From positions 1-63,822 of the forward strand of contig JAJHSH010000027.1 in the NCBI GenBank assembly GCA_022683945.1: 63,822 bases of DNA, read 5' to 3'. How positions within the stretch are numbered: the first letter of the stretch is position 1; every line of letters begins with the position of its first letter. The notes beneath the pieces are model-generated. The model saw nothing but the letters and a program-made list of their open reading frames with translations. It had not been told where the DNA came from and did no database searches. This DNA is from Candidatus Acetothermia bacterium. GTDB taxonomy: Bacteria > Bipolaricaulota > Bipolaricaulia > RBG-16-55-9 > DRXL01. Shown one piece after another: positions 4,600 through 44,844 of this stretch. The translations under genes were made by a program, and so were the position numbers.

Positions 4600-5830
4600 G
4601 ATTTTTCTGTTGTGACGACTCACCCGACTAAAGCCGGATGCTTCTCGGCACGCGGGCCGAAGGCTGCGTCCCAGCCTAACGCCCGCACCAGAATCACGCG
4701 GGCGGCATTCACGTCGCGGTCAAGAACCAGACCGCAAGAAGGACAATGATGCTCACGAATATGAAGAGTTTTGGGGACGTAACACCAACAGGCAGAGCAG
4801 AGTTGACTGGTGTGCGGGGCGTCCACTCTTCTGATCTCACTACCAGCATTTGCAGCTTTGTAGTCGAGCATTTTAGCAAGCGTGGCCCAACCCGCATCGT
4901 GAATCGACTTGCTCATCCCCGGTTTGGTCTCGTGCGTCATCCCCTTGATGTTCAGAGACTCAATGACGATCAGACTGTAGGTATCAACGAGCCGACGCGA
5001 GAGCTTATGCAGAAAGTCCTTGCGCTGCCTAGCGACCTTGCTGTGCAGGCGAGTCAGTATTCGGCGCTGCTTGCGGCTGCGATGCAAAGAGTAGCGTTGC
5101 TGGACTTCAGTCAATCGTTCTTCGGCTTGGCGGTAGAGACGCGGGGCCTTGATCTTGGCGCCGTCCGACAGTGCAACTATGTGGTTAAGCCCTACATCGA
5201 GCCCAACCATCGGGCCGTGATGAACGGGTGGCGTTACATCAGGAACCGAGATCCTGAACGTAGCGAACCACTTACCGTTGGCTTGACGAGTGATCACCAC
5301 GTCTTTGATTTCAGCCTGTTCAGGGAGCACTCGATGCCAACGGACACGAATCACTCCCACGTTCTGTACTCTCAAGCGTCTCGTGGCCGTCAGGCCGCTA
5401 CCATCGCCGAAGCGGAACTCCAAGGACCGGAACCGGTCTGTGGCCTTAAATCGTGGACGTTTGCGAATGCCCTGAAGAAATGCGCGGTAGTTCTTATCCA
5501 GGCGGCGCAGCACCTGTTGACAGGCCGAAAAGTTCAACTGGCCAAGCTCGACATCTTCCCTGCGCATCCGCTTGAGATCGGCAGCCTGATCGGTGTAACT
5601 GACGGAGTGAAAATATCGTTTCCAGCAGAGCAGACGATGCTCAAGCGCAGCGTTGTAGAGTCTGCGGCCTACATCAAGCAACTGTGCAAGAGCTTGCTCC
5701 TGCTTCGTAGTTGGGTAGATTCGGTACTGGTAGGCGCGTTTCATCGCAATTTATTATGCTTGCAAGGTGAGGTGAAGTCAAGGGGCCGATTCCCCACCCG
5801 CTTAAAAGCGGGTGTCCCCTCGGCCTAAAC
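4600..5830 (-). mobile_element. tnpB-only IS605/IS1341-like element, ends not determined
   Basis: The solo tnpB is wedged between the lrp-like gene and panB. A hairpin ccacccgcttaaaagcgggtg lies at about 5796-5816 upstream of tnpB. The exact LE/RE boundaries cannot be set without a second copy. Confidence 0.4.
4620..5744 (-). CDS. tnpB: IS200/IS605-family TnpB (OrfB, RuvC-like RNA-guided nuclease) (374 aa)
   Basis: The N-terminus MKRAYQYRIYPTTKQEQAL is typical of OrfB_IS605. The RuvC triad contexts GLDVGLNH, VIESLNIKG and DRDVNAARVI are present, as is the zinc finger CSACWC...CPSCG. No tnpA is adjacent. Confidence 0.9.
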   Translation of the reverse strand: MKRAYQYRIYPTTKQEQALAQLLDVGRRLYNAALEHRLLCWKRYFHSVSYTDQAADLKRMRREDVELGQLNFSACQQVLRRLDKNYRAFLQGIRKRPRFKATDRFRSLEFRFGDGSGLTATRRLRVQNVGVIRVRWHRVLPEQAEIKDVVITRQANGKWFATFRISVPDVTPPVHHGPMVGLDVGLNHIVALSDGAKIKAPRLYRQAEERLTEVQQRYSLHRSRKQRRILTRLHSKVARQRKDFLHKLSRRLVDTYSLIVIESLNIKGMTHETKPGMSKSIHDAGWATLAKMLDYKAANAGSEIRRVDAPHTSQLCSACWCYVPKTLHIREHHCPSCGLVLDRDVNAARVILVRALGWDAAFGPRAEKHPALVG

Positions 5831-5834
5831 TTCT

Positions 5835-6689
5835 ATGGACGACAGAGTGACCATCCCCGGGTTGTTGAAGCTCAAAGAAAAAAAAGAGAAGATCGTCTGT
5901 CTGACGGCGTATGACTGGCCGACCGCGCTGCTGCTCGACCGTGCCGGCATCGAGCTGGTCTTAGTGGGCGACTCAGTGGGCAACAATATGCTGGGCTACT
6001 CCAGCACCATTCCCGTGACCATGGACGAGATGATCCATCACACCAAGGCGGTGCGCCGGGGAGTCGAGCGCGCGCTGCTCGTGGGCGATATGCCCTTTAT
6101 GTCCTATCAGGCCTCTACGGAAGAGGCGATCCGCAACGCAGGCCGTTTCATCAAAGAGGGCGGCACGGAGGCGGTCAAGCTCGAGGGCGGCGAAGAGATC
6201 GCCGATCTTATTGATATCTTAGTGCGTCGCGGTCTGCCGGTGATGGGCCATCTGGGGCTGCTGCCCCAGCGCACTTCCCAAGTGGGCGGCTACAGAGTCC
6301 AAGGGCGCGATGAGATCTCTGCGCGCAAGATGCTGCGTGAAGCGAAAATCTTAGAAGAGGCCGGTGTTTTTTCTCTGGTCTTGGAGATGGTGCCGTGGCC
6401 GCTGGCCAAGCTCATCAGCGAGAGTCTCAAAATCCCGACGATCGGCATCGGCGCCGGGCCGTATTGCGATGGTCAGATCTTAGTGATCACGGACGTCGTA
6501 GGGCTTTCTTTCAGGGTCTCGCCGAAATTCGCCAAGCGCTATCTCAATCTTGGGGAACAGATAGAACAATCTGTGAAAGCCTATCTCACGGAAGTGAAAT
6601 CTCTGGCTTTCCCAACCGTAGAGCAGCATAGCTTTTCTATGGACGAAGAGGTGTTGAAGAAGCTACCCTCACCCCATCCCTCTCCCTGA
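5835..6689 (+). CDS. panB: 3-methyl-2-oxobutanoate hydroxymethyltransferase
   Basis: CLTAYDWPTALLLDRAGIELVLVGDSVGNNMLGY...VKLEGG...GHLGLLPQ matches the PanB family. The last approximately 8 codons and the stop are supplied by repeat 6666-6700. Confidence 0.95.
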   Translation: MDDRVTIPGLLKLKEKKEKIVCLTAYDWPTALLLDRAGIELVLVGDSVGNNMLGYSSTIPVTMDEMIHHTKAVRRGVERALLVGDMPFMSYQASTEEAIRNAGRFIKEGGTEAVKLEGGEEIADLIDILVRRGLPVMGHLGLLPQRTSQVGGYRVQGRDEISARKMLREAKILEEAGVFSLVLEMVPWPLAKLISESLKIPTIGIGAGPYCDGQILVITDVVGLSFRVSPKFAKRYLNLGEQIEQSVKAYLTEVKSLAFPTVEQHSFSMDEEVLKKLPSPHPSP

Positions 6690-6700
6690 GAGGGAGAGGG
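6666..6700. repeat. family A palindromic repeat, right outer arm missing
   Basis: ccctcaccccatccctctccctgagagggagaggg. It overlaps the panB 3' end. Confidence 0.8.
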
Positions 6701-6709
6701 CAGGTCTCT

Positions 6710-7624
6710 ATGAGAATCTTGATCGTCGGTGCAGGAGCACTAGGGAGTCTCTTCGGAGGGCTGCTAGCGCGCGCCGGCGCGACCGTTCAGCTTTACAATC
6801 CATCCCAGATAGAGCATATAGATGCCGTTCGCCGCGCGGGCTTACAGATCGAGTGCGCGGGCGGCGAAACGCTCCATATCAGACTCCAAGCGACGGCTCA
6901 AGCGCCGGAGATCGCAGCAGCAGATCTGGTCGGCCTCTTTGTTAAAGCACATCAGACCGCGGCGGCTATGGCCCAAATCGCGCCCAAGATCTCTGCGGAG
7001 GCTTGGGTCTTGAGTCTCCAGAACGGCGTGGGCATGGAGAGCGAGATTCTTCGCTATCTCCCTGGAGAACGATTTCTGCGAGGCACGACCGCGCAGGGGG
7101 CGACGCTGCTGGGGCCGGGGCGGGTGCGCTGGGCGGGCGTGGGACCGACGCGCTTGGGGCGCTGGCAGGGCCTGCCCAACGCCGAGACCGACCAACTCGT
7201 GGCGCTCTGCAATCGCGCCGGTCTGGAGACGGAGTTCGTCGCGGACATCGAACGACTGCTCTGGGAAAAACTGATGGTCAACTCTGTTATAAACCCCCTG
7301 ACGGCGCTCTTTAATCTGCCCAACGGCGCTATCGTCAACGACTCTGAGTTAAGAGAGATCGCGCACGCCGTCGCCCGTGAAGCATTGCCCCTCGCTCGCC
7401 ATCATGGCGTGCTGTCGAGCGAGCCGGAAATTATCGAGAAGATCGAGAGAGTAGCGTGCAAGACGGCGGAGAATATTTCCAGTATGCTACAAGACGTCCG
7501 GCGCGGGCAGCCGACGGAGATCGCGTATATCAACGGCGCGGTCGTGCGTGAAGGACGTCGGTTGAATATTCCGACGCCGCTGAATTTGTTGTTGGTGAAG
7601 TTGGTTGCGAGCAGATCGAGCTGA
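6710..7624 (+). CDS. panE: 2-dehydropantoate 2-reductase (ketopantoate reductase)
   Basis: MRILIVGAGALGSLFGGLLARAG Rossmann start, ApbA/PanE-like C-terminal domain (EKLMVNSVINPLTAL, QDVRRGQPTEIAYINGAV), and adjacency to panB. Confidence 0.85.
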   Translation: MRILIVGAGALGSLFGGLLARAGATVQLYNPSQIEHIDAVRRAGLQIECAGGETLHIRLQATAQAPEIAAADLVGLFVKAHQTAAAMAQIAPKISAEAWVLSLQNGVGMESEILRYLPGERFLRGTTAQGATLLGPGRVRWAGVGPTRLGRWQGLPNAETDQLVALCNRAGLETEFVADIERLLWEKLMVNSVINPLTALFNLPNGAIVNDSELREIAHAVAREALPLARHHGVLSSEPEIIEKIERVACKTAENISSMLQDVRRGQPTEIAYINGAVVREGRRLNIPTPLNLLLVKLVASRSS

Positions 7625-7738
7625 CAGCGGATTTCGGCAGCAGATTAAGCTAAGAACCCTCACCCTGCACCCTCTCCCTGCTAGGGAGAGGGACGGGGTG
7701 AGGGTGGCTGAATCCGCTCCCCGAATCTGCTGTCAGCT
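7619..7738. repeat. composite repeat: outer AGCTGACAGC palindrome with a nested family A palindrome (7657-7706)
   Basis: agctgacagcggatttcggcagcagattaagctaagaa + ccctcaccctgcaccctctccctgctagggagagggacggggtgagggtg + gctgaatccgctccccgaatctgctgtcagct. The panE stop codon (7622-7624) lies inside the left arm. Confidence 0.9.
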
Positions 7739-7776
7739 CTGCTACAAATCTGATGAAGCAAAGGAGCGACATCGCT

Positions 7777-8979: not shown

Positions 8980-9573
8980 ATGCAAGTCCCGATTGTGATT
9001 GACCGCACCGGCCAATACGAGCGCGCTTATGATATCTACTCGCGCCTATTGGAAGACCGCATTGTCTTTCTGCAAGGCGTCATCAATGACTATATGGCCA
9101 ACTTAGTCGTGGCGCAGATGCTCTTTTTAGAATCTAAAGACCCGGAGAAAGACATCAGTCTCTATATTAACTCTCCCGGTGGGAGCGTGACCGCCGGGCT
9201 GGCGATCTACGACACGATGCAGTATGTGCGCTGCGACGTGCGCACGATCTGCATCGGTTCGGCCTTCTCGATGGGGGCGCTCTTATTAGCCGCGGGGGCG
9301 CGCGCCAAGCGTTATGCGCTCCCCAACGCGCGCATTATGATCCATCAGCCTTGGGGCGGCGTGCAGGGCCAAGCGGCAGATATTAAGATTCAGGCCGAAG
9401 AGATCTTAAAGACGCGCGATCAGCTCATCAAAATTCTCGCGGAGCACACGGGGCAACCGTTAGAGCAGATCGCCAAAGACACCGACAGAGATTTCTTCAT
9501 GGGGCCGGCCGAAGCGGCCCAATACGGGCTGATCGACGAAGTGATCAAGATGCGCAAGCAGATGAAGAGCTGA
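8980..9573 (+). CDS. clpP: ATP-dependent Clp protease proteolytic subunit
   Basis: [15 protein letters not shown], the Ser context [11 protein letters not shown], the His context IMIHQP, and DTDRDFFM. Confidence 0.95.
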
Positions 9574-9605
9574 AGCCCCCTCTCCCCCAAGGGGGAATTG
9601 TTAAG

Positions 9606-9688
9606 AGCTGACAGCGGATTCGGGTAGCAGATTAAGCGGATTTCTCAATATAATCTGCTTAATCCGTTACTGAAATCTGCTGTCAGCT
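9606..9688. repeat. family B palindromic repeat (AGCTGACAGC...GCTGTCAGCT), empty form
   Basis: agctgacagcggattcgggtagcagattaagcgga...tccgttactgaaatctgctgtcagct is an 83-nt near-perfect hairpin with no nested family A element. Confidence 0.9.
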
Positions 9689-9761
9689 TTAGCGACATCT
9701 CAAAAGCGAATCAGTATTAGGCCCACTGGAAGCGTGTGCTCAGGCTTCCCCCTCAGCTCGA

Positions 9762-9796
9762 CCCTCACCCTAACCCTCTCCCTGAAAGGGAGAGGG
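9762..9796. repeat. family A palindromic repeat, truncated
   Basis: ccctcaccctaaccctctccctgaaagggagaggg. It adjoins, with no overlap, the 3' end of the 9801-10364 ORF. Confidence 0.8.
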
Positions 9797-10913: not shown

Positions 10914-12401
10914 TTAGAACTTCATCTCGAGGCTGATCCGCTGCGCGGCGAGGCTGTCGGGATGGAGGACCGTGGAGCTCTTCACTGTCAAGTTCCCGAT
11001 CTTCCAAGCGACGTCCACCGAGCCGCCGTAGAAGTCGCGCATCAACTGGAGGAAGCCCATCCAGATGTCAATAGTGACATCGCCGACGGACGCACTCAGG
11101 AAGATGTCGTGGCTGAGCCAGCCTCCGAGAGCAAATGCAGGGCAGGTGTTCTCGTCCACGCAGGGTATGAGCACGCTCCTCCATTTCATCCCCGGAGGAT
11201 CGAAGTCAACAACTATCACGGAGAAGAAGACGGTCATCGCCGTGCCGGTGGATGCCGGGCGATAGACCAGCGTCGTCGAGACGGCCATATCGCCGACGCG
11301 CAGGCTCGTCGTTAAGTTATTCGAGCGCAACTGCAACGAGACGGCGCCCACCTTGCCGATATTCATCACGTTGCTGATAGAGAGCCCGAAGGGCGCCAGC
11401 GTGAAGGCCTGCGTCAACTGGATGAAGTTGAGGCCGGTCTGGTTGAGGGTGTCGCCCACTTCGATGGGCGCAAACCAGAACTCCAGACGCGCGCCCCACG
11501 TCACACCGGCGATGCGCACGTTGCGGATGATGATCTTCTCTTCGTAGATGACGAAGGTGTCCTCGACCATGCCGGAGAAGACGCGCTGCAACGGTTTGCA
11601 CTCGCCGAAGCACTCCGCGCCTTGGCGCGAGCCGATCCACGTTTCAGCGCGGATGGTGATGCCGCTGACCGTTTGGCCTTCGGCCGAGGCGACCCAGCCC
11701 ATGCGCCAGTTCGGCGTGGTAGCCGAGCCGATATTGGCGAAGAGGCCGCGCAGACCGATGACCAGGCCGGCGACGTTGAGCGAGAGATCTACGATCTTCT
11801 TTCTGAAGGTCAGCACCGGATCGAGATGGCCCGCCGTGTCAAAGAGATTGGCGAGCACCAGGTTCTCGATGGCCGAATGATAGAAGCCGTTCAGCAAGCC
11901 GAACATATGGAACGTGCCATAGATCGGCGTCCAGCGCCCGAGTAACGTGAGCCCTGTCACCGTAGCTGCAGATGGACAGCTGGGGACATAGGGCGCGAGC
12001 GTTGGGTCGGACGAGTCCAAGCAATAGCGCGAGCGACCGACCGAATCGCGAAAGTGCCGCAGCTCGACGATATTCGGGGCGAAGATCATCTGGACGCGGA
12101 AGGCCGCGGGGCCGACCGTGCCCGTTGCCACGAACGACTGAAACTCCAGGCCCTTAAACGTAAACGCCGAGGTGCTGGTGATATCAATGCCGCTCACGGA
12201 GAGCGTCAGGATGAGATCGGCCTCAAACTTCACGGTGACCTTGTCGATCTTGGCTCCACCCACAGCGCCGGTGACGGTCTCTGGGATGAAGACAATCTCG
12301 ACGATCGCCGAGCCGCTGACGGGAGCCGCATGGGCCGTCCAAGTCCATCCGGCGCACGCTACGGCCAGCACCGCGATGAGGGCTAGTGTTCTTCTAAACA
12401 T
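10914..12401 (-). CDS. envelope paralog 1: secreted beta-rich protein ending in ...EMKF (495 aa)
   Basis: MFRR plus a signal peptide (..AHA-AP). It shares the blocks KFEADLILTLSVSGIDITSTS, LTFRKKIVDLSLNVAGLVIGLRGLFANIGS, ECFGECKP and DFDPPG, and has a C-terminal Phe. It is a paralog of the next two ORFs. Confidence 0.85.
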   Translation of the reverse strand: MFRRTLALIAVLAVACAGWTWTAHAAPVSGSAIVEIVFIPETVTGAVGGAKIDKVTVKFEADLILTLSVSGIDITSTSAFTFKGLEFQSFVATGTVGPAAFRVQMIFAPNIVELRHFRDSVGRSRYCLDSSDPTLAPYVPSCPSAATVTGLTLLGRWTPIYGTFHMFGLLNGFYHSAIENLVLANLFDTAGHLDPVLTFRKKIVDLSLNVAGLVIGLRGLFANIGSATTPNWRMGWVASAEGQTVSGITIRAETWIGSRQGAECFGECKPLQRVFSGMVEDTFVIYEEKIIIRNVRIAGVTWGARLEFWFAPIEVGDTLNQTGLNFIQLTQAFTLAPFGLSISNVMNIGKVGAVSLQLRSNNLTTSLRVGDMAVSTTLVYRPASTGTAMTVFFSVIVVDFDPPGMKWRSVLIPCVDENTCPAFALGGWLSHDIFLSASVGDVTIDIWMGFLQLMRDFYGGSVDVAWKIGNLTVKSSTVLHPDSLAAQRISLEMKF

Positions 12402-12442: not shown

Positions 12443-13969
12443 TCAGAACTTAACGCTGAGGTTAAACGCTTGCCAGCCCAACCTATTAGTAAAGAGATAG
12501 GTTTCGCTAGCGAAGGAGACGTTCCCCACCGTCCAAGTGGCGTTAAGTGAAACACTATAGAGTTCCTTGAGCAGGCTGCCCAGCATGACCGCCAGCGCCG
12601 AGACCTTCAGATCGCCGACCTCAAACTCGATGTAATAATCGGTCTCGATGAACATCCCGCCCGGTACGCCCGTAATGAGGCCGGAGCGACAGGCTCTTGT
12701 AAAGCCGGCGAAGTAGTCCGTCTGACAGTTGATGACTACAACTGTAGCGGTGCCGCCCGGCGGATCGAAGGTCAGGATGAGCGCCGTGAAGAGCGGCTCC
12801 CATGCGAGGATGGCAGTGGGACGATAGTCGATCTGAACGGTCGCGGACGCCTCACCGACGCGGATGCCGAAGAGCACGATGTTGCGCGCCAAACTGAGTC
12901 CGGCAGCGAAGCGTGCGATGTTGGTAATGGTCAGCCCGATCGGGGTGATGCGCGGCGTCGTCGAGGTGATCTGCATATTCGTCGGCTGGAGCGAGCTGGC
13001 GCCCGATCCCGCGAAGACGAACTCGATGGCGATGCTGTTGCGCACGCCCGCGAGCGTCAACCCGCTGATGAAGAGCTTCTCCTCTTCGGGGTTCATGCCG
13101 GGGACGACGATGCCGCCGCCCGCCGGATAGGGGGCGAAGGTGGACATCGTGAACCCGATGCGCGAGGCAGGTTTGCACTCGCCGAAGCACTCGAAGCCTT
13201 GGCGGGCGCCGAACCACGTCTCGCTGCGCACGGAGATGCCGCTGACCGTCGTGCCCGCGAGGATGAGCACGAAGCCGCTCTCAAAGGCCGGGACTGCGAC
13301 CGAGCCCAAGTTGGCGAAGAGGCCGCGCAGGCCCAGAGTCAATCCGGCGATGCTGAGCGTCGCCTCGGCGATCTTCTTGCGGAAGGTCAGCACGGGCGTG
13401 AGGTTCGAGCCGCCGGTGAGCGGGTGATTGGGGTTAAGGTTATCTGCCCAGCGCCCCAAGATCAGGTTCTGCAGCGAGGGGCTAGACAAAAACAGCGAGA
13501 AGAAGCTGTATTGTCCATAGACGGGATCATTAATACCAGCCGAGAAGCCAGGACAGCTGCTGAGCGCATTGCTATCGACGTTCGGCGCCATAGCTCTGAT
13601 GCAGTAGCCGCGGCTGGCCGTGCCGGAGCGGACCTCTTCGAACTCGATGATGCTCGGCGCGAAGACCAAGATTGTACTCAAGCTCATCGGGCCGACCGTC
13701 GCTTTAAGGGAGAAGAGCTGCACCTCGACGCCCTTGAACGTGAAGAGCGTCGTGCTGGTGAGATCTACCCCGCTGATCGAGAGCGCCAGAACGAGATCGG
13801 CCTCGAACTTCACGACGATTTGGTCGATTTTTGCTACGCCCCCGGTCGGATCCGGATAGAAGATAATGTCGATGCCAAAGCTCCCGGTGATCGGAGCGGC
13901 CATCGCTCCCCACGAGAGGGCTCCGGCGAGCGCGAGCGCGCAAACCAGTGCTGTGAATCTTCTAAACAT
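12443..13969 (-). CDS. envelope paralog 2: secreted beta-rich protein ending in ...SVKF (508 aa)
   Basis: It has the same MFRR start, signal peptide, conserved blocks and Cys pairs as paralogs 1 and 3. Its RBS and start region, AAGGAGGTTCAGTCAATGTTTAGAAGA, are nearly identical to those of paralog 1. Confidence 0.85.
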   Translation of the reverse strand: MFRRFTALVCALALAGALSWGAMAAPITGSFGIDIIFYPDPTGGVAKIDQIVVKFEADLVLALSISGVDLTSTTLFTFKGVEVQLFSLKATVGPMSLSTILVFAPSIIEFEEVRSGTASRGYCIRAMAPNVDSNALSSCPGFSAGINDPVYGQYSFFSLFLSSPSLQNLILGRWADNLNPNHPLTGGSNLTPVLTFRKKIAEATLSIAGLTLGLRGLFANLGSVAVPAFESGFVLILAGTTVSGISVRSETWFGARQGFECFGECKPASRIGFTMSTFAPYPAGGGIVVPGMNPEEEKLFISGLTLAGVRNSIAIEFVFAGSGASSLQPTNMQITSTTPRITPIGLTITNIARFAAGLSLARNIVLFGIRVGEASATVQIDYRPTAILAWEPLFTALILTFDPPGGTATVVVINCQTDYFAGFTRACRSGLITGVPGGMFIETDYYIEFEVGDLKVSALAVMLGSLLKELYSVSLNATWTVGNVSFASETYLFTNRLGWQAFNLSVKF

Positions 13970-14009: not shown

Positions 14010-15677
14010 TTAGAACTTCACAGTCAAGCTGAAGGCTTGGCCGCCCAAGACATCGGTCAAGATAATGGTCGAGCTGACGAACGTGACCGGCCCGACGGTG
14101 AAGGAGAGGTCGACATCGAACTGCCTGAAGACCGCAAAGACGCCGCCCGCCCAGAGGACGTTCGCCGCGACGTTGAGCGGACCAACAGTGCCGGCCAAGC
14201 TGATCTTGTGGCTGACGACCGTGGAAAGCCCTGGCGTGTGGACGTTAGGAGCGGTCGGGCCGCAGAGCGGCAGCGTCGCGCAGAACGTCATATCGCTGGT
14301 GACCTTCACGCCCGGCGGATCGAACGTCGAGACCAGATTGGTCAAGCCAACGTTGAACGAATTCTGAGCGCTGGCCCAGTAGATCAAGTTGGCCGTTACG
14401 GCGACATCGCCCATGCGCAGCTCGAGGCTGGTGACGTTGCTCAGCAGATCGAGCAGGCCGTTGAAGTTCCAGGTCGTCCTGAAGTTCAGGCCCCAAGGAG
14501 CGATGCGGCCACTCTGCGTCAGTTGAACGAAGCAGAGCGGAGTGACGATATTCATGTCGTCTTCGTCGGTAACGCCGTCGCCGTCGTCGTCAACGCCGTT
14601 CAGGGGATCCTCGCCCCACCAGCCGTCACCGTCATTATCAATCTGATCAATGCCGCACTGGAAGATATTGGGCAGGGTCGGGTCATCGCCCGGGACGCCG
14701 CCGTCCCAGTTGGTGAGATCGAAGTGCATCTCGACGCGCAGATCGTGGCGGATGCCCGCGATGACCAAGTTCGTCAAGAAGAGCTTCTCCTCTTCGACGT
14801 TGTCGAGCAATGCGCCGGTGACCATAGCGTTGAAGAAGCGCTCCAAGGGCTTGCACTCGCCGAAGCACTCCAAGCCCTGCTTAGCGCCGATCCAGAGTTC
14901 ACCTCGGACGCCGACGCCGCTGACCGTGCGGCCTTCCAACGACAGGACCATGCCGCTGCGCAGCTCGAAGCCCGTAGGGCTTTGGCTGACGTTGGCGAAG
15001 AGCGCCTTGACGCCCAGCACCATGCCGGCGATGTTCAAGCTGAGATCGGCGATCTTCTTGCGGAAGCGGATCGTGTTCCCTAGCGCGCCCGTCGGATCAA
15101 TCCAGCGAGCTAATACCAAGTTCTGGATGACCGGGTGGACGGCGCCCGCGCCGAAGATGCTGTGAAAGCCGACTATGCCAAAATCCAGATCGTCAATGTG
15201 CGCGTTCAGGCCGCCAAAGAAGTGACCGCCCGCAAAGCTGGGATAGTAACAATTGGCGTGACTCGCTGGGGTGTTCATCTGGGGCAACGAATCCTGCACG
15301 CACCAGCGCAAGCGTCCAAATTGATCGCGCAACTCTTCAAACTCGAAGAACGTAGGCGAGAAGATGATCGTATCTCGGATCGTCAGAGCGCCCAGCGTTG
15401 CGCTGATCACGAAGGACTGAAACTCCAGACCGCGGAAGGTGAAGATCGTCGTGCTGGTGATGTCCACCCCGCTGACGGAGAACGTCAGGATCAGATCAGC
15501 CTCGAACTTCACGCTGATATAGTCGAGCTTATCGGCGGTGTTTGCCGACGCATCGTGCTCAGGGTAGAAGACGATATCAATAGCGAAGCTTCCGCTGATG
15601 GGCGCGGCGGTCGCTCCCCAAGAGAGGGCTCCGGCAACCGCGAGCGCACAGAAGAGAGCAAATAATCTTCTAAACAT
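14010..15677 (-). CDS. envelope paralog 3 with an acidic DxDxDG insertion, ending in ...TVKF (555 aa)
   Basis: It has the same architecture as paralogs 1 and 2, plus the insert CGIDQIDNDGDGWWGEDPLNGVDDDGDGVTDEDDMNIVTPLC encoded at about 14549-14660. Confidence 0.85.
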   Translation of the reverse strand: MFRRLFALFCALAVAGALSWGATAAPISGSFAIDIVFYPEHDASANTADKLDYISVKFEADLILTFSVSGVDITSTTIFTFRGLEFQSFVISATLGALTIRDTIIFSPTFFEFEELRDQFGRLRWCVQDSLPQMNTPASHANCYYPSFAGGHFFGGLNAHIDDLDFGIVGFHSIFGAGAVHPVIQNLVLARWIDPTGALGNTIRFRKKIADLSLNIAGMVLGVKALFANVSQSPTGFELRSGMVLSLEGRTVSGVGVRGELWIGAKQGLECFGECKPLERFFNAMVTGALLDNVEEEKLFLTNLVIAGIRHDLRVEMHFDLTNWDGGVPGDDPTLPNIFQCGIDQIDNDGDGWWGEDPLNGVDDDGDGVTDEDDMNIVTPLCFVQLTQSGRIAPWGLNFRTTWNFNGLLDLLSNVTSLELRMGDVAVTANLIYWASAQNSFNVGLTNLVSTFDPPGVKVTSDMTFCATLPLCGPTAPNVHTPGLSTVVSHKISLAGTVGPLNVAANVLWAGGVFAVFRQFDVDLSFTVGPVTFVSSTIILTDVLGGQAFSLTVKF

Positions 15678-16774: not shown

Positions 16775-16809
16775 GAGGGGGGGAGGGGGGAGTGAGCCGG
16801 ATGCTCAGA

Positions 16810-16868
16810 CCCTCACCCGGCCTGCGGCCACCCTCTTCCTTCAAGGGAGAGGGATGGGGTGAGGGTGG
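16810..16868. repeat. family A palindromic repeat, long variant with GGCC-N-GGCC arm
   Basis: ccctcacccggcctgcggccaccctcttccttcaagggagagggatggggtgagggtgg. It lies between the divergent promoters. Confidence 0.85.
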
Positions 16869-16881: not shown

Positions 16882-16911
16882 TTGACAACCCTCTCTCAGC
16901 TCTGTTATAAT
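16882..16911 (+). promoter_or_regulatory. sigma70 promoter (extended -10) for clpC
   Basis: TTGACA (16882-16887), 18-nt spacer, TGT-TATAAT (16903-16911). Confidence 0.55.
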
Positions 16912-16961: not shown

Positions 16962-19451
16962 GTGATTCGCTTTGATCGCTTCACTGAAAAAGCCCAAGAG
17001 CTCTTTCGCGACGCGACGGATCTGTTAGAGAAATACAGACAGAACCAACTGGACGTCGAGCATATCTTTTATACGCTTGCTGCCAAGTCCGGCATCGGCG
17101 GTGAATTACTAAAAGAGATGGGCGTCCCCATCCCCGGCCTGCTCAAAGATTTAGAGATTCTCTTGGGCGAAAAACCCAGCATCTCCACTACGGTGGGACA
17201 ACAGATCTACATCACCCCGCGACTGGAGATGCTCGTCAAGTCGGCGCACTTAGAGGCCGACCGGCTCAAAGACGAGTTTGTCTCTATAGAACATCTCTTG
17301 ATTGCCATCAGCCAAGACCCCAACACCAAGCTGCGGCGCGTGCTGCACAAATACGGGATCACCCCGGAGACGGTCTATCAGGCCCTCTCCAAAGTGCGCG
17401 GGGCGCAGCGCGTCACCGACCGAGAGGCCGAGAGCCGCTACCAAGCCCTAGAGAGATTCTCGGTGAATCTCACGGCCTTGGCCAGAGAGGGAAAGCTCGA
17501 TCCCGTCATCGGGCGCGCGCGCGTGATCCGCCGCGCCGTGCAGATCCTCTCGCGCCGCAAGAAGAACAACCCCGTGCTCATTGGGGAACCCGGCGTGGGC
17601 AAGACCGCAATAGCTGAAGGCTTAGCACAGCGCATCGTCGTCGGCGACGTCCCCGAAACACTGAAAGAGAAAGAGTTAGTTCAGTTGGATTTAGCAGCGC
17701 TGGTCGCCGGCACCAAATTTAGAGGGGAGTTCGAAGAGCGCTTAAAAGCCGTCATCAGCGAGATCGAGAACGCCAAGGGGGCGATCTTAGTATTTATAGA
17801 CGAGCTGCACACGGTGGTCGGCGCGGGGGCCGCCGAGGGCGCCATTGACGCTTCCAATATTTTAAAGCCCGTCTTGGCCCGCGGGACTTTTCAAGTGATC
17901 GGCGCGACGACTTTGGACGAGTATAGAGAGCATATCGAGCAGGACCCGGCACTGGAGCGGCGCTTTCAAAAGATATTAATAGAAGAGCCGTCGCTGGACG
18001 AGACCCTTGCTATCTTAGAAGGGATGCGCAGCAAGCTCGAAGCCCATCATAAAGTGAAGATCACCGACGGCGCGCTGCGCGCGGCGGCCCAGCTCTCGGC
18101 GCGCTATATTTCCGATAGATTCTTGCCCGACAAGGCGATAGATTTATTGGACGAAGCCGCTTCGAAGCTCCGGGTAGACCGGACCTTCGCGCCCGAAGTC
18201 CAAGAGATCACCGAGAAGATCAAATTATTAGAAGGGCGGTTGAAGAACTTGAGGCCCTCACCCCGGCCTTCGGCCACCCCTCTCCCGTCTGGACGGGAGA
18301 GGGGGCTGGGGGGTGAGGGCCTAGCAGCGCAACAAATCGAGAGAGAGCTCGAACGCTTGCAGGCCGAAAAGACCCAGCGCGAAGCCCAGCACGCCCAGCG
18401 CGTGCAGCTGGAGCCTATCGTCAGCGAGCGCGAGATCGCCGAGACGGTAGCTCTCTGGACGGGCGTCCCCGTCGAACAACTCTTCGAAGGTGAACGCGAA
18501 AGATTGGCAAAACTCGAAGAGCGTCTGCACCAGCGGGTCATTGACCAGAACGACGCCGTCAAAGCGATCGCCCAAGCGGTGCGCCGCGCCCGCGCCGGAT
18601 TAAAAGACCCTAAGCGTCCTGCGGGCAGCTTCTTGTTCTTAGGCCCCACCGGCGTGGGCAAGACCGAACTCTCCAAAGCGCTAGCCGAGGCCCTCTTCGG
18701 CGACGAGAACGCCCTTCTGAGATTCGATATGTCCGAATTTATGGAATCGCACTCGGTCGCCAAGCTGATCGGCTCTCCCCCCGGCTACGTCGGCTACGAA
18801 GAGGGCGGCCAATTAACCGAAGCCGTGCGCCGCAAGCCCTATAGAGTGATCCTCTTCGACGAGATCGAAAAAGCCCATCGCGATCTCTTTAATATTCTCT
18901 TGCAAGTCCTAGACGACGGGCGGCTCACCGACGGGCATGGGCGCACCGTAGATTTCAAGAATACTCTTATTCTGATGACCAGTAACTTGGGCAGCGAGCA
19001 GATCGTCTCCTCAATTGCTCAGTTGGGGTTCGTCAGCGAGAAGAGCGACGTGCACGAGCGCTCCTATCAAGAGATCCGAGAGCGCGTCTTAGCTGAGGTG
19101 CGCAAGTTCTTCCGGCCTGAATTTATTAACAGATTGGACGGGCTGATCGTCTTCCGCCCGCTCTCCAGAGAGAATCTCTTGGAGATCGTCGAGCTGAAGT
19201 TAGAAGCGTTGCGCCGGAAGCTCGCCGAGCGGGAGATCTCTCTAGAAGTGAGCGCTCCGGCCAAGGCGCTCTTAGCTGAGAGGGGCTACGACTTGTTCTA
19301 CGGGGCACGTCCGTTGCAGCGCGTCATCCAAGACGAAATCGAGAATGAGCTGGCGATGCAGATCGTCGAAAACAAACTAAAAGAAGGGGAGACGGTGCGC
19401 GTGGACGTCGTAGCGGGGCAGTTCAAGATCGTTGTGGAAGCAACTGTTTAA
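16962..19451 (+). CDS. clpC: class I Clp/Hsp100 AAA+ chaperone, ClpC-type (829 aa)
   Basis: Two Walker A motifs ([16 protein letters not shown]), a Clp_N N-terminal domain and a short middle domain. A ClpP-docking-type loop [10 protein letters not shown] in D2 aligns with IGL of ClpA and LGF of ClpC and is absent in ClpB. GTG start with AAGGAG upstream. Confidence 0.85.
18253..18321. repeat. family A palindromic repeat inserted in frame inside clpC (69 nt = 23 codons)
   Basis: ggccctcaccccggccttcggccacccctctcccgtctggacgggagagggggctggggggtgagggcc is translated as [23 protein letters not shown]. The flanking sequence, LEGRLKNL / [14 protein letters not shown], is continuous coiled coil. Confidence 0.9.
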
Positions 19452-19548: not shown

Positions 19549-20109
19549 ATGTCTGTACAAATTACCAAGCGGCTCTTCACTGTGACGGAGTACTATCAGA
19601 TGGCGCAGGCGGGTATTCTCTCTGAGGACGACCGCGTCGAGCTGTTGGAGGGGGAGATCATCGAGATGAGCCCGATCAGCAGTCGTCATGCTAGTTGCGT
19701 TAGCCGTTTGAACTACGTTCTTCAAAGTCGCGTGCAGGATCGCGCGATCGTCAGCGTGCAAAACCCCGTACGCTTGAGCGAGCATTCCGAACCTCAGCCA
19801 GACTTGACTTTACTCAGGCCACGCGCTGATTTCTACGGCGTGGCTCATCCTCAACCCCAAGATGTGCTCTTACTCGTGGAAGTCTGCGAGACATCCACAC
19901 ACTTCGACCGGCGAGTTAAACTCCCCCTCTATGCAAAAGCGGGTATCCCCGAAGTCTGGCTCGTAGATCTCACCCAACAGCAGATCGAAGTCTATCGTTC
20001 TCCTTCGCAGCAGGGCTACAGTCAAATTCAGACGTTCGTGCGTGGCCAATCTCTAACCGTAGAAACCCTGCCGGAGATAGAACTGAATCCGGAAGAGATC
20101 TTAGGCTAA
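19549..20109 (+). CDS. Uma2 (DUF820) family putative endonuclease
   Basis: FTVTEYYQMAQAGILSEDDRVELLEGEIIEMSP...PDLTLL...LLLVEVCETS...KLPLYAKAGIPEVWLVDL has the PD-(D/E)xK-like Uma2 pattern. The internal ATG at 19549 is preferred. Confidence 0.8.
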   Translation: MSVQITKRLFTVTEYYQMAQAGILSEDDRVELLEGEIIEMSPISSRHASCVSRLNYVLQSRVQDRAIVSVQNPVRLSEHSEPQPDLTLLRPRADFYGVAHPQPQDVLLLVEVCETSTHFDRRVKLPLYAKAGIPEVWLVDLTQQQIEVYRSPSQQGYSQIQTFVRGQSLTVETLPEIELNPEEILG

Positions 20110-20567
20110 AGCCGGAGCTGCAAGAACCCCAACGTCGCTAAAGTCACCAGGAGACCGGCAATGGCCACCCCCAGCGTGATCAACGGGAGCGCATATCTGA
20201 GCGGAATCCCAAAGAGATGCGTGATCAAGACCCCCGTCCACGCTCCCGTCAGCGGCAGAGGAATCGCCACAAAGAGCACCAGCGCCAGCGCGCCAAAGCG
20301 CTCCACCAGCGCGCTGTGTCGCTTGCGCGTACGCGCAAAGAGCCAGATGATCAGACGCTCCAGCGCTGAGAGCCGGCGCAACAGGTTCGTCAGCGGCTCC
20401 AAGAGCCAGAGCAGCAAGGGCACAGGCAGCAGATTCCCCAAAACCCCCAACAGATACGCCGTCACGGGGTCGAACCTGTAGACCCCCATAGCCAAAGGGA
20501 TCGCGCCGCGCAGTTCGCTGAAGGGCAGAGATGCAACGACAAGCACGACGAGTATTGACTCAAGCAT
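20106..20567 (-). CDS. small multi-TM membrane protein (COG2426 / small multidrug export-like)
   Basis: LPFSELRGAIPLAMGVY...GNLLPVPLLLWLL with about 4 TM helices. The start was moved to the ATG at 20567, because the ORF-track start at 20582 lies in a repeat. Confidence 0.55.
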   Translation of the reverse strand: MLESILVVLVVASLPFSELRGAIPLAMGVYRFDPVTAYLLGVLGNLLPVPLLLWLLEPLTNLLRRLSALERLIIWLFARTRKRHSALVERFGALALVLFVAIPLPLTGAWTGVLITHLFGIPLRYALPLITLGVAIAGLLVTLATLGFLQLRL

Positions 20568-20573
20568 AGTTCT

Positions 20574-20620
20574 CACCCTCACCCCGGCCCTCTCCCTGAC
20601 TAGGGAGAGGGGGTAGGGTC
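20574..20620. repeat. family A palindromic repeat
   Basis: caccctcaccccggccctctccctgactagggagagggggtagggtc. Confidence 0.8.
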
Positions 20621-22301
20621 ATAGCTCCAGCGCCGCGCGACAGGTCCCCGCCCGCTCGCTCTTTGCTATCACACTCAACTCCCCGCGCCCGCGCACCAGC
20701 CACTCGATCTTCCTCTCGCTCTCTTTGCTCGTGCCCCGAAAGGCGTGATAGGACGTCCACGGCTGACAGAGCGCCGTCGCCACACCCGCCAAGTGCTCGA
20801 TCTCTTGCTTGGGTCTCCCCAGCTCCAGCGTCGCGCTCGTGGGCAGTTGCAGCTCGACTTGGATGGGCTGAGAGAGCTTCTTCTCCAAGGCCCGCTGCGA
20901 GACATAAGTGGGCAGCCAGCCGTCGTTCTCCAGCACCAAAGAGATTCTATAAAGATCCGCGCCGACGGGCTGCGCGGCGAACTCACGAATCCGCAGACGC
21001 GGCGAGGCCGCAGCGTGTCTCAAGCTGAAGAGCATGTTCTTGTGAGACTCTTCTTGCAGAAACTTCGGCGGCGGATTCACCCAAGTATAGAGCAGCCGCC
21101 AGCCGCCGATCTCCACTCTGCCCAACTGGGGATGCTCAAAGGGCGTCCAAGACTGAAAACCCTCTCCGTTGAGCTCCCGATCACACCAGCGCAAGAGCTT
21201 TAACTCGTCCTCTTCGCTGCGCTCGCGGAAGAACTGAATAAAATCTTTGACTTCGATCCCCGCGTGGGAAGCGATGCTCCACAGCTCCGTCGTGTACGCG
21301 AAGACTCCGTAATTATCATAGGCCCAGTCGTCGAAGACCCCGGTGATCGGCTTATTTTTGTCATAGCGAAACTCGTCGTTGACCGAGACGCAGCGATAGC
21401 CCGTCGCGTCGGTGCCGCGCTCGCCGATCGCTTTATAGACGGCCAGATCGAAGTTGGGGAAGGCCGTATCGGGTTTGCCGCTATAGGGTCTTAGGATGAC
21501 CCCACTCGTGGTGTGATAGGTCAGCGCGCCGCAGATATTTTTGTGCTTATAGAAAAATTCTACGACGGCGCGCACTTCGGACTCTGAGGTCGGGTACTCC
21601 CCCGCGCCCTGCTGCCCCGACTCCACTTGCCACTCGTGCGGGAAATTTCTGTTCAGATCGAGACCATAGGGCGTCGGCGCAACTTCCTTGCGAAAGCCGT
21701 CATAGTTGAGAAACGTGCCCTCAGCGTAGAGCCTATAGAACGGTCCGTCGAGATCGTCGGGCCTGCGCTTGAGCATCAATCTTGGGTCTTTCTGGGAGAT
21801 CTTCCATTCGCCCAAGGGGTCTTTCACGCGCATCTGTAAGATCTCCCCATCGCCGTTGATGTCTTCAGGGTGCAGGCCATCGCGGATCTCATCGAAGGGA
21901 TAGCGGCGCACGCTGGAGCGCACCCATTTATGGGTCTTCAGCAGATATTCGGTCCCGTCGGGGCTCATTCTGGGAAGAATATAAAACGCGCGCGTATCGA
22001 GCAGATGCGTGACCAGACGGTCTTTATTATGATTTTCCAAGAGATACCAGATCGTATAGAGCGCCACGGCGCTGCCGCACAGCTCGACGGCGTGAATATT
22101 GGCGTCGATCCAATAAGCGGGTTTCTCGCTGTCCGGCCCGGTCTGGGTATTCGTCAAGACGGCCAGCCATAGGTCACGCCCTTCATAGCTCTTGCCAATC
22201 GTCTCCAGACGTATAAGCTGGGGATAGGCGTCGGCGGCCCGGCGCAGAAACTGCACGACCTCGTCATAACTATAATAACGCGCTGCATCGTAAGAGAGCA
22301 T
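20619..22301 (-). CDS. M14-family zinc carboxypeptidase, no signal peptide (560 aa)
   Basis: YYSYDEVVQFLRRAADAYPQLIRLETIGKSYEGRDLW..., the HxxE zinc site in WIDANIHAVELCG, and MSPDG. Confidence 0.8.
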   Translation of the reverse strand: MLSYDAARYYSYDEVVQFLRRAADAYPQLIRLETIGKSYEGRDLWLAVLTNTQTGPDSEKPAYWIDANIHAVELCGSAVALYTIWYLLENHNKDRLVTHLLDTRAFYILPRMSPDGTEYLLKTHKWVRSSVRRYPFDEIRDGLHPEDINGDGEILQMRVKDPLGEWKISQKDPRLMLKRRPDDLDGPFYRLYAEGTFLNYDGFRKEVAPTPYGLDLNRNFPHEWQVESGQQGAGEYPTSESEVRAVVEFFYKHKNICGALTYHTTSGVILRPYSGKPDTAFPNFDLAVYKAIGERGTDATGYRCVSVNDEFRYDKNKPITGVFDDWAYDNYGVFAYTTELWSIASHAGIEVKDFIQFFRERSEEDELKLLRWCDRELNGEGFQSWTPFEHPQLGRVEIGGWRLLYTWVNPPPKFLQEESHKNMLFSLRHAAASPRLRIREFAAQPVGADLYRISLVLENDGWLPTYVSQRALEKKLSQPIQVELQLPTSATLELGRPKQEIEHLAGVATALCQPWTSYHAFRGTSKESERKIEWLVRGRGELSVIAKSERAGTCRAALEL

Positions 22302-27483: not shown

Positions 27484-28224
27484 CTACCGCTTCCTCCCTG
27501 AATTGAACTCGACCAACTTCACCCAATCTATCTTGCCCTTTCGGCAAAACTCCTTTGTGAATTCGACGGTAAAGTTCGTGATGATCTTAGCATATTCCTC
27601 CATAAATTCCTCGTTCTTTTCTTTAGCCCTGTGTCCTAAAGGCTCGATGATCTGGGTGTACAGCTCATCTCTGCCGGAAATTAACTCCCAGAACTCTTGC
27701 CCGCAGTATTTAAAGTAGTCGCCCTTGTTGGGATGAGCATCCTGACCGTAGCAACAGCCGTTGACAGCCACTATTTGAATTTGCGGTCGGCTCTTTTGTA
27801 TCTCTTTAATTACTTGTTTGAAGTTCTCTCGCATTTTCTTTATCTGGTCGGCATTGCCCCAGTTCGGTCCTGATTTTATCGAGACAACATAGAAAACCCC
27901 ATCCCGTTCAAATTCTAAATCTGTACTAGGATGACTCGATTTCTTGCCTCCATAGGCGAGCTGGCAAACATAAATGGCTATCCCTTCCAGAAACTCGCCA
28001 AACATTGTCTCTTCTTGAGAAGATAGATGTGCATCCAAGAGAAGCTTCACTAAATCAGGGGCAGCAATAACATGCTTTGCCTTGAAAAGGTAGGGATTCT
28101 TGCGTTTGAGGATCTGCTTGAGTCTTAGTTGGCGCAAGCTGTCGAGACGTGCCTTGTGGAAACTGTTGATGTTGTCTTCTACATATTTCTTTATGGCGTC
28201 AAGCGATAGGGTATTAGTTCTCAT
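27484..28224 (-). CDS. probable type II restriction endonuclease (246 aa)
   Basis: It starts 10 nt downstream of the methyltransferase gene in the same low-G+C block. KRKNPYLFKAKHVIAAPDLVKLLLDAHLSSQEETMFGEFLE and a TDLEFE...VVSIKSG PD-(D/E)xK-like core recall the TdeIII/Eco47II/PmeII-type REase families. The family name is from memory only. Confidence 0.55.
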   Translation of the reverse strand: MRTNTLSLDAIKKYVEDNINSFHKARLDSLRQLRLKQILKRKNPYLFKAKHVIAAPDLVKLLLDAHLSSQEETMFGEFLEGIAIYVCQLAYGGKKSSHPSTDLEFERDGVFYVVSIKSGPNWGNADQIKKMRENFKQVIKEIQKSRPQIQIVAVNGCCYGQDAHPNKGDYFKYCGQEFWELISGRDELYTQIIEPLGHRAKEKNEEFMEEYAKIITNFTVEFTKEFCRKGKIDWVKLVEFNSGRKR

Positions 28225-28233: not shown

Positions 28234-29124
28234 TCACTTCTTGAAGCTTGGTACTGACCCAAGGTCAGGGAAAAGACTAGGCGGTTCCAAAGGTTGCTTA
28301 ACAGCCAGCAGGCGTTGCTTGGCTATCTCGCAATACTGGGGATTGATCTCGATACCGATATAGGTTCTGCCGAGTTGTTTGCAAGCTACGGCAGTTGTGC
28401 CGGAGCCCATGAACGGGTCGAGCACGACATCGCCAGACTGCGTGAACAACTTAATGAACCAGATGGGTAACTCAACAGGGAATGTGGCCGGATGCCCTTT
28501 GTTGGCACACTCCGTAGGCAGATGAAGCACATTTGTCGGGTACGCCAATTCTCTCCCTACCCAATTCAGGATCTTTTTCCCGAAGCCGCTGCCCACTCTT
28601 GAATGGTCTCGGCGCTTGTCCGTTTCGCTCAGCTTCCTCAATCGGGTCTCTTTCCAAGCCCCCATCGGAACCATGACCGCCTCTTGATACATGGTAAATT
28701 TCCTCTGCTTGGTGAAGTGCAAGCACCGCTCCCAGGCATCTCTAAAACGATTAGGCCATTTCCCCGGATAGCAATTCTTCTTGTGCCAGCAGTATTCTTC
28801 GATCCAGAACCATCCCTGTTCGCGCATCTTCAAGATGAGTTGAAGAACGTAGGTGTGTCGCTCAGCGTTCACAACCCTCTCTTTGATGTTAAGAATGAAG
28901 GAGCCTTCGGGCTTCAATACCCGTTTTAGTTCAGCAGCGATGGGCAAAAACCACTCGACATATCTGTCGGGATGCACTCCGCCGTAGAGGTCCTTTCTCT
29001 GGTCAGCGTATGGCGGGGAGGTTACGATCAGATCAACAGAGTTATCGGGTAATTGGGGAAGGATTTGGGCACAGTCGCCCTCGATGATGGAGTTCAGAAA
29101 TCTCTCTAAGCCATTCTCGCTCAT
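28234..29124 (-). CDS. beta-class DNA methyltransferase (N4-cytosine or N6-adenine)
   Basis: Motif IV, DLIVTSPPY, is near the N-terminus, and motif I, DPFMGSGTT, is near the C-terminus. Confidence 0.9.
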   Translation of the reverse strand: MSENGLERFLNSIIEGDCAQILPQLPDNSVDLIVTSPPYADQRKDLYGGVHPDRYVEWFLPIAAELKRVLKPEGSFILNIKERVVNAERHTYVLQLILKMREQGWFWIEEYCWHKKNCYPGKWPNRFRDAWERCLHFTKQRKFTMYQEAVMVPMGAWKETRLRKLSETDKRRDHSRVGSGFGKKILNWVGRELAYPTNVLHLPTECANKGHPATFPVELPIWFIKLFTQSGDVVLDPFMGSGTTAVACKQLGRTYIGIEINPQYCEIAKQRLLAVKQPLEPPSLFPDLGSVPSFKK

Positions 29125-37472: not shown

Positions 37473-37534
37473 CCACCCTCACCCCATCCCTCTCCCTCTT
37501 AGGGAGAGGGTGGCCGAAGGCCGGGTGAGGGTGG
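37473..37534. repeat. family A palindromic repeat, long variant
   Basis: ccaccctcaccccatccctctccctcttagggagagggtggccgaaggccgggtgagggtgg. Confidence 0.9.
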
Positions 37535-44829: not shown

Positions 44830-44844
44830 CTACGATTAAAAATA

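Follow-up and report, generated by a model that had tools for sequence, protein, structure and literature searches.

In-frame palindromic repeats within genes are known from Rickettsia and from a few bacteria rich in repetitive extragenic palindromic sequences (REPs), where each case tends to be regarded as an isolated, frozen accident. We analyzed a 63,822-nucleotide (nt) stretch of DNA from Candidatus Acetothermia bacterium (contig JAJHSH010000027.1 of assembly GCA_022683945.1), referred to here as the window, in which a 69-nt palindromic repeat lies in frame within a clpC-type Hsp100 chaperone gene. New at this locus are a rich, partly inverted allelic series of inserts at the ClpC regulatory tip and conservation at the level of the DNA across lineages whose silent sites are saturated.

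The closest described systems are the Rickettsia palindromic elements (RPEs), which are in-frame palindromic elements (Ogata et al. 2000; reviewed in PMC10969869). As with RPEs, the repeat studied here belongs to a dispersed palindromic family, is found in frame in a conserved housekeeping gene and supplies an extra surface segment compatible with function. RPEs differ in that they are ~100-150 bp long, occur in Rickettsia, form sequence families of their own with a conserved peptide per family, and hit many genes. Here the elements are 50-69 nt, the host is Bipolaricaulota-like, the sequence appears unrelated, one of ~56 window genes is hit, and the peptide is flipped or frame-shifted between alleles. 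REPs also include intragenic members, and different REPs are found near the same recB site in two Xanthomonas species (PMC3733652), the nearest precedent for differing repeats at one position. Like the present family, REPs are short, GC-rich, imperfectly palindromic and numerous; most copies lie no more than 20 bp from gene 3' ends, and occasional copies inside open reading frames (ORFs) encode 20-30 residues (PMC3733652). In contrast to REPs, the family described here has no GTAG/CGTC tag, forms a nested double or triple hairpin rather than a single stem, and is not accompanied by a RAYT gene in the window; ClpC is not a reported REP host, and the range of alleles found at a single position is far greater here. 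Inverted termini, as in miniature inverted-repeat transposable elements, are present, but target-site duplications are absent at the clpC copy and at the other full copies. The repeat works like the RPEs and the intragenic REPs and is a member of neither. A preliminary description of this DNA, made from the sequence alone, had proposed an RPE-like persistence in a conserved chaperone gene as a surface loop, and the analysis bears out this core idea: the family is otherwise intergenic, the gene is intact, and the insert is modeled as a low-confidence loop.

The host gene and its upstream promoter are located as follows.

16962 to 19451, forward strand: intact clpC-type Hsp100 gene (ORF of 829 amino acids, GTG start)
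16882 to 16911, forward strand: perfect sigma-70-like promoter TTGACA-18-TATAAT, 50 nt upstream of the clpC start codon

All sequences in this study are metagenome assemblies, and the analysis was confined to the assembled sequence. The clpC product contains the Pfam domains Clp_N (PF02861, matched as two stretches, E = 5e-19), AAA, AAA_lid_9, AAA_2 and ClpB_D2-small. Its motifs are complete (two Walker A, two Walker B, and the pore loops KFRG and GYVG), all residues invariant across 44 homologs are present, and no second long ORF besides 16962-19451 (forward strand) exists at the position of the insert. The top PDB relatives of the protein were ClpB (1qvr) and ClpC (3j3s). The ClpC structures of Bacillus subtilis and Staphylococcus aureus gave a single full-length match, whereas the ClpB match was split in two, and the ClpB equivalog score fell under its cutoff (1059.8 < 1232.1). 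The protein shares with Firmicutes ClpC (3j3s, 6em8; full-length E ~1e-236) an N domain, AAA-1, a short M-domain and AAA-2 with a ClpP-docking (V/L)GF loop, its own LGF (residues 688-690) aligning with the VGF of B. subtilis ClpC. The M-domain is of the short type, a two-helix coiled coil within AAA-1, as opposed to the long four-helix M-domain of ClpB. By these sequence features the gene is an intact ClpC-type class I Hsp100/AAA+ unfoldase. Judged by homologs, the host belongs with uncultured relatives of Bipolaricaulota/Acetothermia.

Within this gene, the insert and its parts were defined from the sequence, its translation and its predicted fold.

18253 to 18321, forward strand: 69-nt nested palindromic repeat (sequence and RNA fold)
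18252 to 18320, forward strand: insert-encoded codons 431-453, 23 residues (translation)
18253 to 18264, forward strand: outer 5' arm GGCCCTCACCCC, pairing with 18310-18321 (fold)
18265 to 18275, forward strand: small side hairpin GGCC-TTC-GGCC, an asymmetric marker of orientation (fold)
18277 to 18304, forward strand: inner 12-bp hairpin CCCCTCTCCCGT-CTGG-ACGGGAGAGGGG, which holds the core motif of the family (fold)
18310 to 18321, forward strand: outer 3' arm GGGGTGAGGGCC (fold)

The element reads GGCCCTCACCCC-GGCCTTCGGCC-A-CCCCTCTCCCGT-CTGG-ACGGGAGAGGGG-GCTGG-GGGGTGAGGGCC over its 69 nt, and its perfect outer arms GGCCCTCACCCC and GGGGTGAGGGCC form a 12-bp stem. Folded as RNA, it forms a three-way junction at -59.4 kcal/mol; shuffled sequences fold at -38.7 +/- 3.4 (z = -6.2) and none of 200 shuffles folded equally well. 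The reverse strand of the element folds equally well. The palindrome begins at codon position 2. As the preliminary description had stated, its length is divisible by three (3n) and the frame is open throughout, and the 23 translated residues are those given there. Just one of the three frames in each orientation carries a stop codon, and both orientations are open in the frame used by clpC. The clpC copy is flanked by TTGA and TAGC, with no direct duplication. An intrinsic terminator within the gene was considered and rejected: there is no T-run after the hairpin and no terminator-like match on the insert.

To place the insert in the protein, AlphaFold models of the window protein (mean predicted local distance difference test score, pLDDT, 80.6) and of the insert-free ortholog P0011 were compared; P0011 was modeled with the same 44 homologs, realigned with P0011 first. 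The window model contains two M-domain helices.

18192 to 18251, forward strand: M-domain helix 1, residues 411-430 (AlphaFold, DSSP H411-430)
18312 to 18407, forward strand: M-domain helix 2, residues 451-482 (AlphaFold, DSSP H451-482)

Residues 431-450 of the window protein lack secondary structure, with pLDDT below 50 for 433-450. The P0011 model shows helix 411-428, a 6-residue turn NADPKT (pLDDT about 86-88) and helix 435-461. In these models the insert forms the loop that caps the helical hairpin of the M-domain, in place of the native 6-residue turn. The preliminary description had suggested structure prediction to see whether the insert lies at the coiled-coil tip, and the models put it there. 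The flanks had also been read as one continuous coiled coil; they are instead modeled as two antiparallel hairpin helices, joined by the NADPKT turn when the site is empty. A single continuous helix split by the insert was accordingly rejected, the empty-allele model having a confident turn there. Alignment with orthologs revealed that the 69 nt do correspond to 23 codons, as first described, but that they are not a clean addition: relative to an unoccupied allele, 15 nt of the turn have given way to the palindrome and a further 9 nt, for a net gain of 63 nt (21 amino acids), and the native ADPKT is absent from the window allele.

In Firmicutes ClpC (S. aureus, B. subtilis), the tip residue F436 and the nearby R443 and D444 mediate the head-to-head repressed resting state; F436 additionally binds MecA, and mutation of F436, R443 or D444 activates ClpC (PMC5699869). 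This is where the proteins differ. The three residues (S. aureus numbering) are not conserved and have no counterparts in the clade studied here, empty alleles included: in a HMMER alignment to B. subtilis ClpC their positions land on the insert or on LAAQQ, the native tip reads NADPKT, and the empty-allele tip NADPKTAPQL has no aromatic residue. The tip may be permissive because the clade lacks these regulatory residues.

We then compared the DNA of 12 orthologs at this site. The 10 with full flanking gene calls have common neighbors, namely a gene for an SLH protein upstream (in most) and a Uma2 gene and/or a small multidrug-export gene downstream, with some loci rearranged; L005, the one close locus in scans of genome and metagenome contig collections that otherwise gave mostly distant clpC genes, was confirmed by a tblastn match alone, and the L165 contig stops just past clpC. 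Differing palindromic inserts occupied the site in 10 of the 12 orthologs, and the remaining two were empty.

L002, L169: empty, ...LKN-ADPKTA-PQL...
Window: the 69-nt element
L171: the window element reversed
L166: reversed, differing at 3 positions
L165: reversed and carrying a new loop of 12 nt
L168: stump of 36 nt that retains just the outer palindrome
L167: variant of composite type
L001, L003: element of the short variant, with additional flanking sequence
L005, L170: palindromes with no relation to the window family

These alleles contradict the idea of a one-off insertion conveyed by the preliminary description. The empty state appears to be ancestral, since the empty loop NADPKTA matches the NADAKTA of outgroups at ~68% identity. 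From one fixed anchor to the other, the length is 51, 84, 87, 102 or 105 nt in occupied alleles and 21 nt in the empty allele, and every occupied allele is 3n and free of stops. That the frame is kept over five or more lengths speaks for translation of the segment and against its being bypassed.

A side observation in the same loci concerned small gene pairs between the Uma2 and multidrug-export genes of some relatives (L167, 3643-4261; L170, 6086-6698; L171, 3826-4286). The pair consists of a DUF4258 gene and a partner in L167 and L170, and of a HicA toxin gene and a partner in L171. These pairs, which look like toxin-antitoxin cassettes, are absent from the window.

Comparison of the inserts revealed conservation of the DNA and not of the peptide. 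Read on the opposite strand, the L171 insert agrees with the window insert at 69 of 69 positions. The two clpC genes are 77.6% identical in nucleotide sequence and 45.5% identical at four-fold sites, and the probability of 69 identical positions at the gene-wide rate is ~2.5e-8. The L166 insert matches at 66 of 69 positions, with all 3 differences at unpaired positions, and the L165 insert matches at 61; in L171, L166 and L165 the side hairpin lies on the opposite side. The two orientations yield different residues, sharing only the arm-encoded RPSP... and ...GEGL, and because the flipped 69/69 match encodes different residues it is the DNA that is conserved. L001 carries another variant of the family in another frame (...DPHPAPSPLKGEGRVRV...). 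By these sequence comparisons, the force that holds the 69 nt unchanged acts on DNA or on a strand-symmetric structure, not on protein. A peptide search for further in-frame copies with four open-frame translations joined, a short and composition-biased query, gave 365 word-sharing candidates in a set of 5.8 billion proteins, none with E <= 10.

The clpC insert is one member of a family that is abundant in the window. The core CCCTCTCCC-N(3-30)-GGGAGAGGG occurs 11 times, compared with 0 expected, and clustering of arm motifs gave at least 13 family copies in the 63.8 kb. Twelve of the 13 copies are intergenic or at an ORF edge, several beginning at most 10 nt from a stop codon; the copy in clpC is the sole one deep inside a gene, though ~92% of the window is ORF (binomial probability of such intergenic bias ~1.5e-12). 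The other copies are listed below.

410 to 459, forward strand: intergenic copy nested in a second palindromic repeat
6665 to 6700, forward strand: copy without the right outer arm, at the panB 3' end
7656 to 7705, forward strand: intergenic copy
9761 to 9796, forward strand: partial intergenic copy
16809 to 16866, forward strand: long-variant copy upstream of the clpC promoter, with an orthologous copy in L001
19454 to 19503, forward strand: short-variant copy, beginning 3 nt past the clpC stop codon
20575 to 20611, forward strand: copy between two minus-strand genes
37475 to 37532, forward strand: long-variant intergenic copy in opposite orientation
39487 to 39528, forward strand: copy upstream of a beta-propeller gene, with the tandem duplicated loop CTTGAAG-CTTGAAG and without the left outer arm
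46011 to 46050, forward strand: copy between convergent genes
52027 to 52062, forward strand: partial copy directly after the gatC stop codon
63773 to 63822, forward strand: long-variant copy cut by the window end, its full 65 nt read in L172

Family copies start with (A/G)CCCTCACCC and finish with GGGTGAGGG(T/C). None carries a GTAG or CGTC tag, neither a target-site duplication nor a conserved target motif was found at the other full copies, and Rfam gave no match over the whole window at gathering thresholds. The preliminary description had equated the clpC insert with the copies at 63773 and 37473. This is correct for family and architecture, but not for sequence: the 63773 copy differs from the clpC copy by 8 edits, the copies at 37473/37475 and 16809 have shorter stems, the 37475 copy has the opposite orientation, and no second copy within 3 mismatches of the 69-mer exists in the window. 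Nor are such intergenic copies its closest kin. The clpC-resident copies of different lineages form a subtype of their own, whose members resemble one another more than they do the long-variant copies elsewhere in the window genome, and one of them is the exact reverse complement. Fresh derivation of the clpC copy from the 63773 copy was rejected on the same grounds (8 edits, compared with 0-3 to clpC copies of other lineages).

Three further observations concern repeats and mobile DNA in this region. Two identical 65-nt long-variant copies with identical flanks lie at 63773-63822 and, beyond the window, at ~69648-69712 in L172, each ~137 nt downstream of a large NosD/beta-helix gene, which indicates that the repeat was duplicated along with the gene. 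A second palindromic family (GCTGACAGCAGATTTCGGTAGCAGATTAAGC...), which does contain GTAG, is found at 371-404, 7618-7650, 9604-9642 and 44746-44782, with inverted partners at, for example, 460-472, 7707-7740, 9652-9690 and 44793-44831; at 374-472 and 7620-7741 an CCCTCACCC-type element occupies its loop, so that repeats are nested in repeats. An IS605-type TnpB gene (4623-5744, reverse strand; OrfB_IS605, Cas12f1-like TNB and HTH_OrfB_IS605 domains), with no adjacent Y1 TnpA gene, was the sole transposon-related gene found in the window.

Several comparisons bear on how the site has changed. The closest relative of the window lineage is L001, with 96.5% nucleotide identity over the gene, and the insert lies in a patch where the two diverge.

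18239 to 18362, forward strand: divergent mosaic patch compared with L001, comprising the insert and ~41 nt of right flank (nucleotide comparison)

To the right of the variable region, the first 48 nt are 75% identical and the next 66 nt 100% identical. Further divergent patches were observed at 17600-17700, 19700-19800 and 20500-20700 (18-28 mismatches per 100 nt), one of them in the Uma2 gene; outside these patches the window and L001 are 98-99% identical. The pattern of patches suggests frequent short-tract recombination between related lineages. In L168, a composite intergenic copy that lies upstream of clpC matches the L167 insert over 82 nt with ~88% identity, down to an unusual one-and-a-half architecture, and this likeness points to overwriting by another family member. 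The L003 allele looks like a short-variant element nested in the remnant of a GGCCC-type left arm. The window lineage and L171 share one metagenome (3300045950), which makes physical exchange possible.

A neighbor-joining tree of the single protein, with bootstrap values computed in numpy, placed the empty L002 within an occupied clade (88% bootstrap) and the empty L169 beside the window and L001 (61%, weak). The two main clades are also backed by synteny, an M14 zinc-carboxypeptidase gene being present in one and absent in the other. The window contains two M14 genes (20622-22301 and 52070-53695, both reverse strand); the one adjacent to clpC is confined to the window, L001 and L169 lineages and serves as a synteny marker of the clade. 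If the empty state is indeed ancestral, the nesting of empty among occupied alleles implies either one origin with lateral spread or at least three insertions at the same position.

The best explanation, to which we assign a probability of about 0.68, is that the insert is a passenger of REP/RPE-like type, translated and tolerated in a permissive loop, which inversion, gene conversion and recombination remodel. The repeat, selfish or at any rate non-coding, would have landed in, or been converted into, the only harmless site of clpC, where it would be transcribed and translated into a Pro/Gly/Arg/Ser-rich, probably disordered loop of ~20 residues that is neutral or nearly so. ClpC would tolerate this loop because the tip is solvent-exposed and the clade is without the Firmicutes regulatory residues, and the site would be an old, hypervariable landing pad for repeat DNA. 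From the alleles we infer the likely routes of turnover. The segment between the 12-bp inverted arms would flip, most simply through template switching during replication, and a single such event would produce the L171 allele from that of the window; internal deletion would give the L168 stump; other family members would overwrite the insert by gene conversion or re-insertion, as in L167; and short-patch recombination would act between co-occurring lineages, as for the window and L001. Quasipalindrome template-switch mutagenesis, associated with Ripley and with Lovett and colleagues, reportedly arises during replication without a dedicated enzyme and inverts or 'corrects' those parts of an imperfect palindrome that are asymmetric. 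It would account for the one-step change from window to L171 allele, but the described cases are point changes and small inversions in genes of laboratory E. coli, not natural protein isoforms. Selection on ClpC would filter only for an open frame and a 3n length, and most 3n outcomes would survive because just one of three frames per orientation has a stop.

Several points weigh against this explanation. The near-identity of the 69 nt across silent-site-saturated lineages is more than a neutral passenger predicts; the excess conservation needs recent exchange, continuing homogenization or possibly a role of the DNA itself, for instance in binding a protein, and among ~85 kb of sequence from this genome an identical donor copy was not found. 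The gene tree is at odds with the way empty and occupied alleles are distributed, and multiple origins would need a very precise hotspot. The window has no transposase able to move the family, with neither RAYT nor Y1 TnpA and only TnpB. Finally, the support consists entirely of assembled sequence.

Recurrent independent insertion at a targeted site, whether by integration machinery or from local DNA, would explain why empty ancestral alleles are nested among occupied ones and why L170 and L005 carry palindromes from outside the window family. Loci with an empty site also had no family copies nearby. Within their own loci of 8.5 kb (L170) and 5 kb (L005), the insert types of these two lineages had no further copies. 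However, the GGCCC-type alleles (window, L171, L166, L165, L168 and the right end of L167) have common junctions, a common phase and a common loss of ADPKT, and they are nearest to each other and not to the intergenic copies of their own genomes, which favors one origin for this class as judged from sequence; the absence of a target-site duplication or conserved target motif at other copies also speaks against targeting. The evidence favors additional events for the unrelated palindromes in L170 and L005. As an account of the whole series, recurrent insertion is unlikely.

A second alternative is that a larger or disordered tip has been selected because it alters ClpC control, for example through a weaker resting state or altered adaptor docking; any palindrome supplying a flexible loop would then be kept. 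Ten of 12 lineages retain an insert, with 10-28 extra residues and always in frame, and the M-domain residues that control repression in Firmicutes ClpC activate the protein when mutated. In contrast, the most widely sampled lineage (the P0011 cluster, 156 members) keeps the site empty, every inspected member reading NADPKTA. Neither the sequence nor the length of the peptide is conserved, and the Firmicutes mechanism may not apply where F436, R443 and D444 lack counterparts. We consider adaptive selection on the loop doubtful.

Recoding intragenic invertons, in which inversion keeps the frame and changes residues, have been documented, including a 57-bp example (PMC10028968), and are the nearest precedent for a flip that recodes. 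Here, too, short inverted repeats flank an intragenic segment and both orientations keep the frame. The insert could by analogy be a programmed in-frame invertible cassette, in which the 12-bp arms recombine, the 45-nt core flips, and two isoforms of the ClpC tip tune regulation. The occurrence of both orientations in nature with 69/69 identity, conservation of the DNA far above the silent-site level, and the origin of both lineages from the same sample are in keeping with such a cassette. Its ends are also bounded by RGGNCCY sites in inverted orientation (AGGCCCT, 18252-18258; AGGGCCT, 18316-18322), and the window encodes an EcoO109I-family restriction-modification system. However, the published cases show both orientations in one culture and are thought to be invertase-driven (PMC10028968), whereas here the orientations were found in different lineages and never in one, and independent assemblies agree on the window orientation. 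A Pfam scan of 56 greedily selected window ORFs detected no serine or tyrosine invertase and no RAYT or Y1 TnpA, TnpB being the only hit of this kind. A maintained switch would not predict the decayed, truncated and unrelated inserts found elsewhere, and template switching inverts palindromes spontaneously, so that no program is needed. A programmed cassette is therefore improbable.

A related proposal, to which we give similarly little credence, is a DNA-conserved invertible cassette, that is, a recoding inverton derived from a selfish repeat and exchanged among co-occurring species via its own arms. Template switching, a recombinase, or cleavage and rejoining of the inverted RGGNCCY ends might, speculatively, drive its flip; cutting both inverted sites would give identical ends, so that the cassette could be rejoined either way. 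If true, populations would gain two or more isoforms of the ClpC tip. The restriction endonuclease of the EcoO109I family is encoded at 27487-28224 (reverse strand; Pfam E = 2.9e-86), next to an N6/N4 DNA methylase at 28237-29124 (reverse strand). RGGNCCY, which we take to be the EcoO109I site, is under-represented in the window (29 sites, compared with 65.7 +/- 9.2 expected).

An assembly or binning artefact, with the palindrome or its orientation chimeric at a repeat, has to be weighed given that the data are all metagenome assemblies, that the window lineage and L171 share a sample, and that repeats are where assemblers err. The gene with its insert is, however, identical (0 differences in 2487 nt) on a separately assembled contig from a metagenome-assembled genome (GCA_022684025.1), so the insert is not a one-off assembly error, and an identical protein is encoded on a JGI contig of 226,788 nt. 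Inserts at this site come from at least eight samples and pipelines (JGI, NCBI, Logan), and the frame is kept in every allele. The orientation could not have been invented by an assembler, as k-mers of at least 15 nt span a lineage-specific flank base together with an orientation-specific core base. An artefact is very unlikely. Least probable of all is an untranslated insert, bypassed by the ribosome or removed from the mRNA as for the GC-rich 'byp' elements of yeast mitochondria or the gap of phage T4 gene 60, a reading to which the very stable mRNA structure (-59 kcal/mol) lends itself but which would not require all ten alleles to be 3n and stop-free over at least five lengths.

Two features of the wider region complete the description of the window.

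8980 to 9573, forward strand: clpP, the likely peptidase partner of ClpC (Pfam CLP_protease, E = 1.9e-85)

The clpP gene adjoins tig and lies 7.4 kb upstream of clpC. Between them, three tandem paralogous ORFs of ~500-555 amino acids (10917-12401, 12446-13969 and 14013-15677, all reverse strand) have no Pfam match; they share DNA blocks of 60-76% identity and near-identical upstream sequences, and an orthologous gene is also called in relatives.

The locus provides a natural allelic series at one codon-level site of a well-understood machine, comprising the ancestral turn, both orientations, a stump, a composite and unrelated palindromes. It indicates that repeat DNA inside a gene can evolve by DNA rules (inversion, conversion and exchange), while the protein need only stay in frame, and it identifies the M-domain tip of this ClpC clade as permissive. 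It allows questions to be asked about how much loop the ClpC arm tolerates and about whether selfish palindromes can give rise to invertible coding cassettes. It also carries a warning for annotation, as Pro/Gly-rich segments in proteins of uncultured phyla can be translated repeats.

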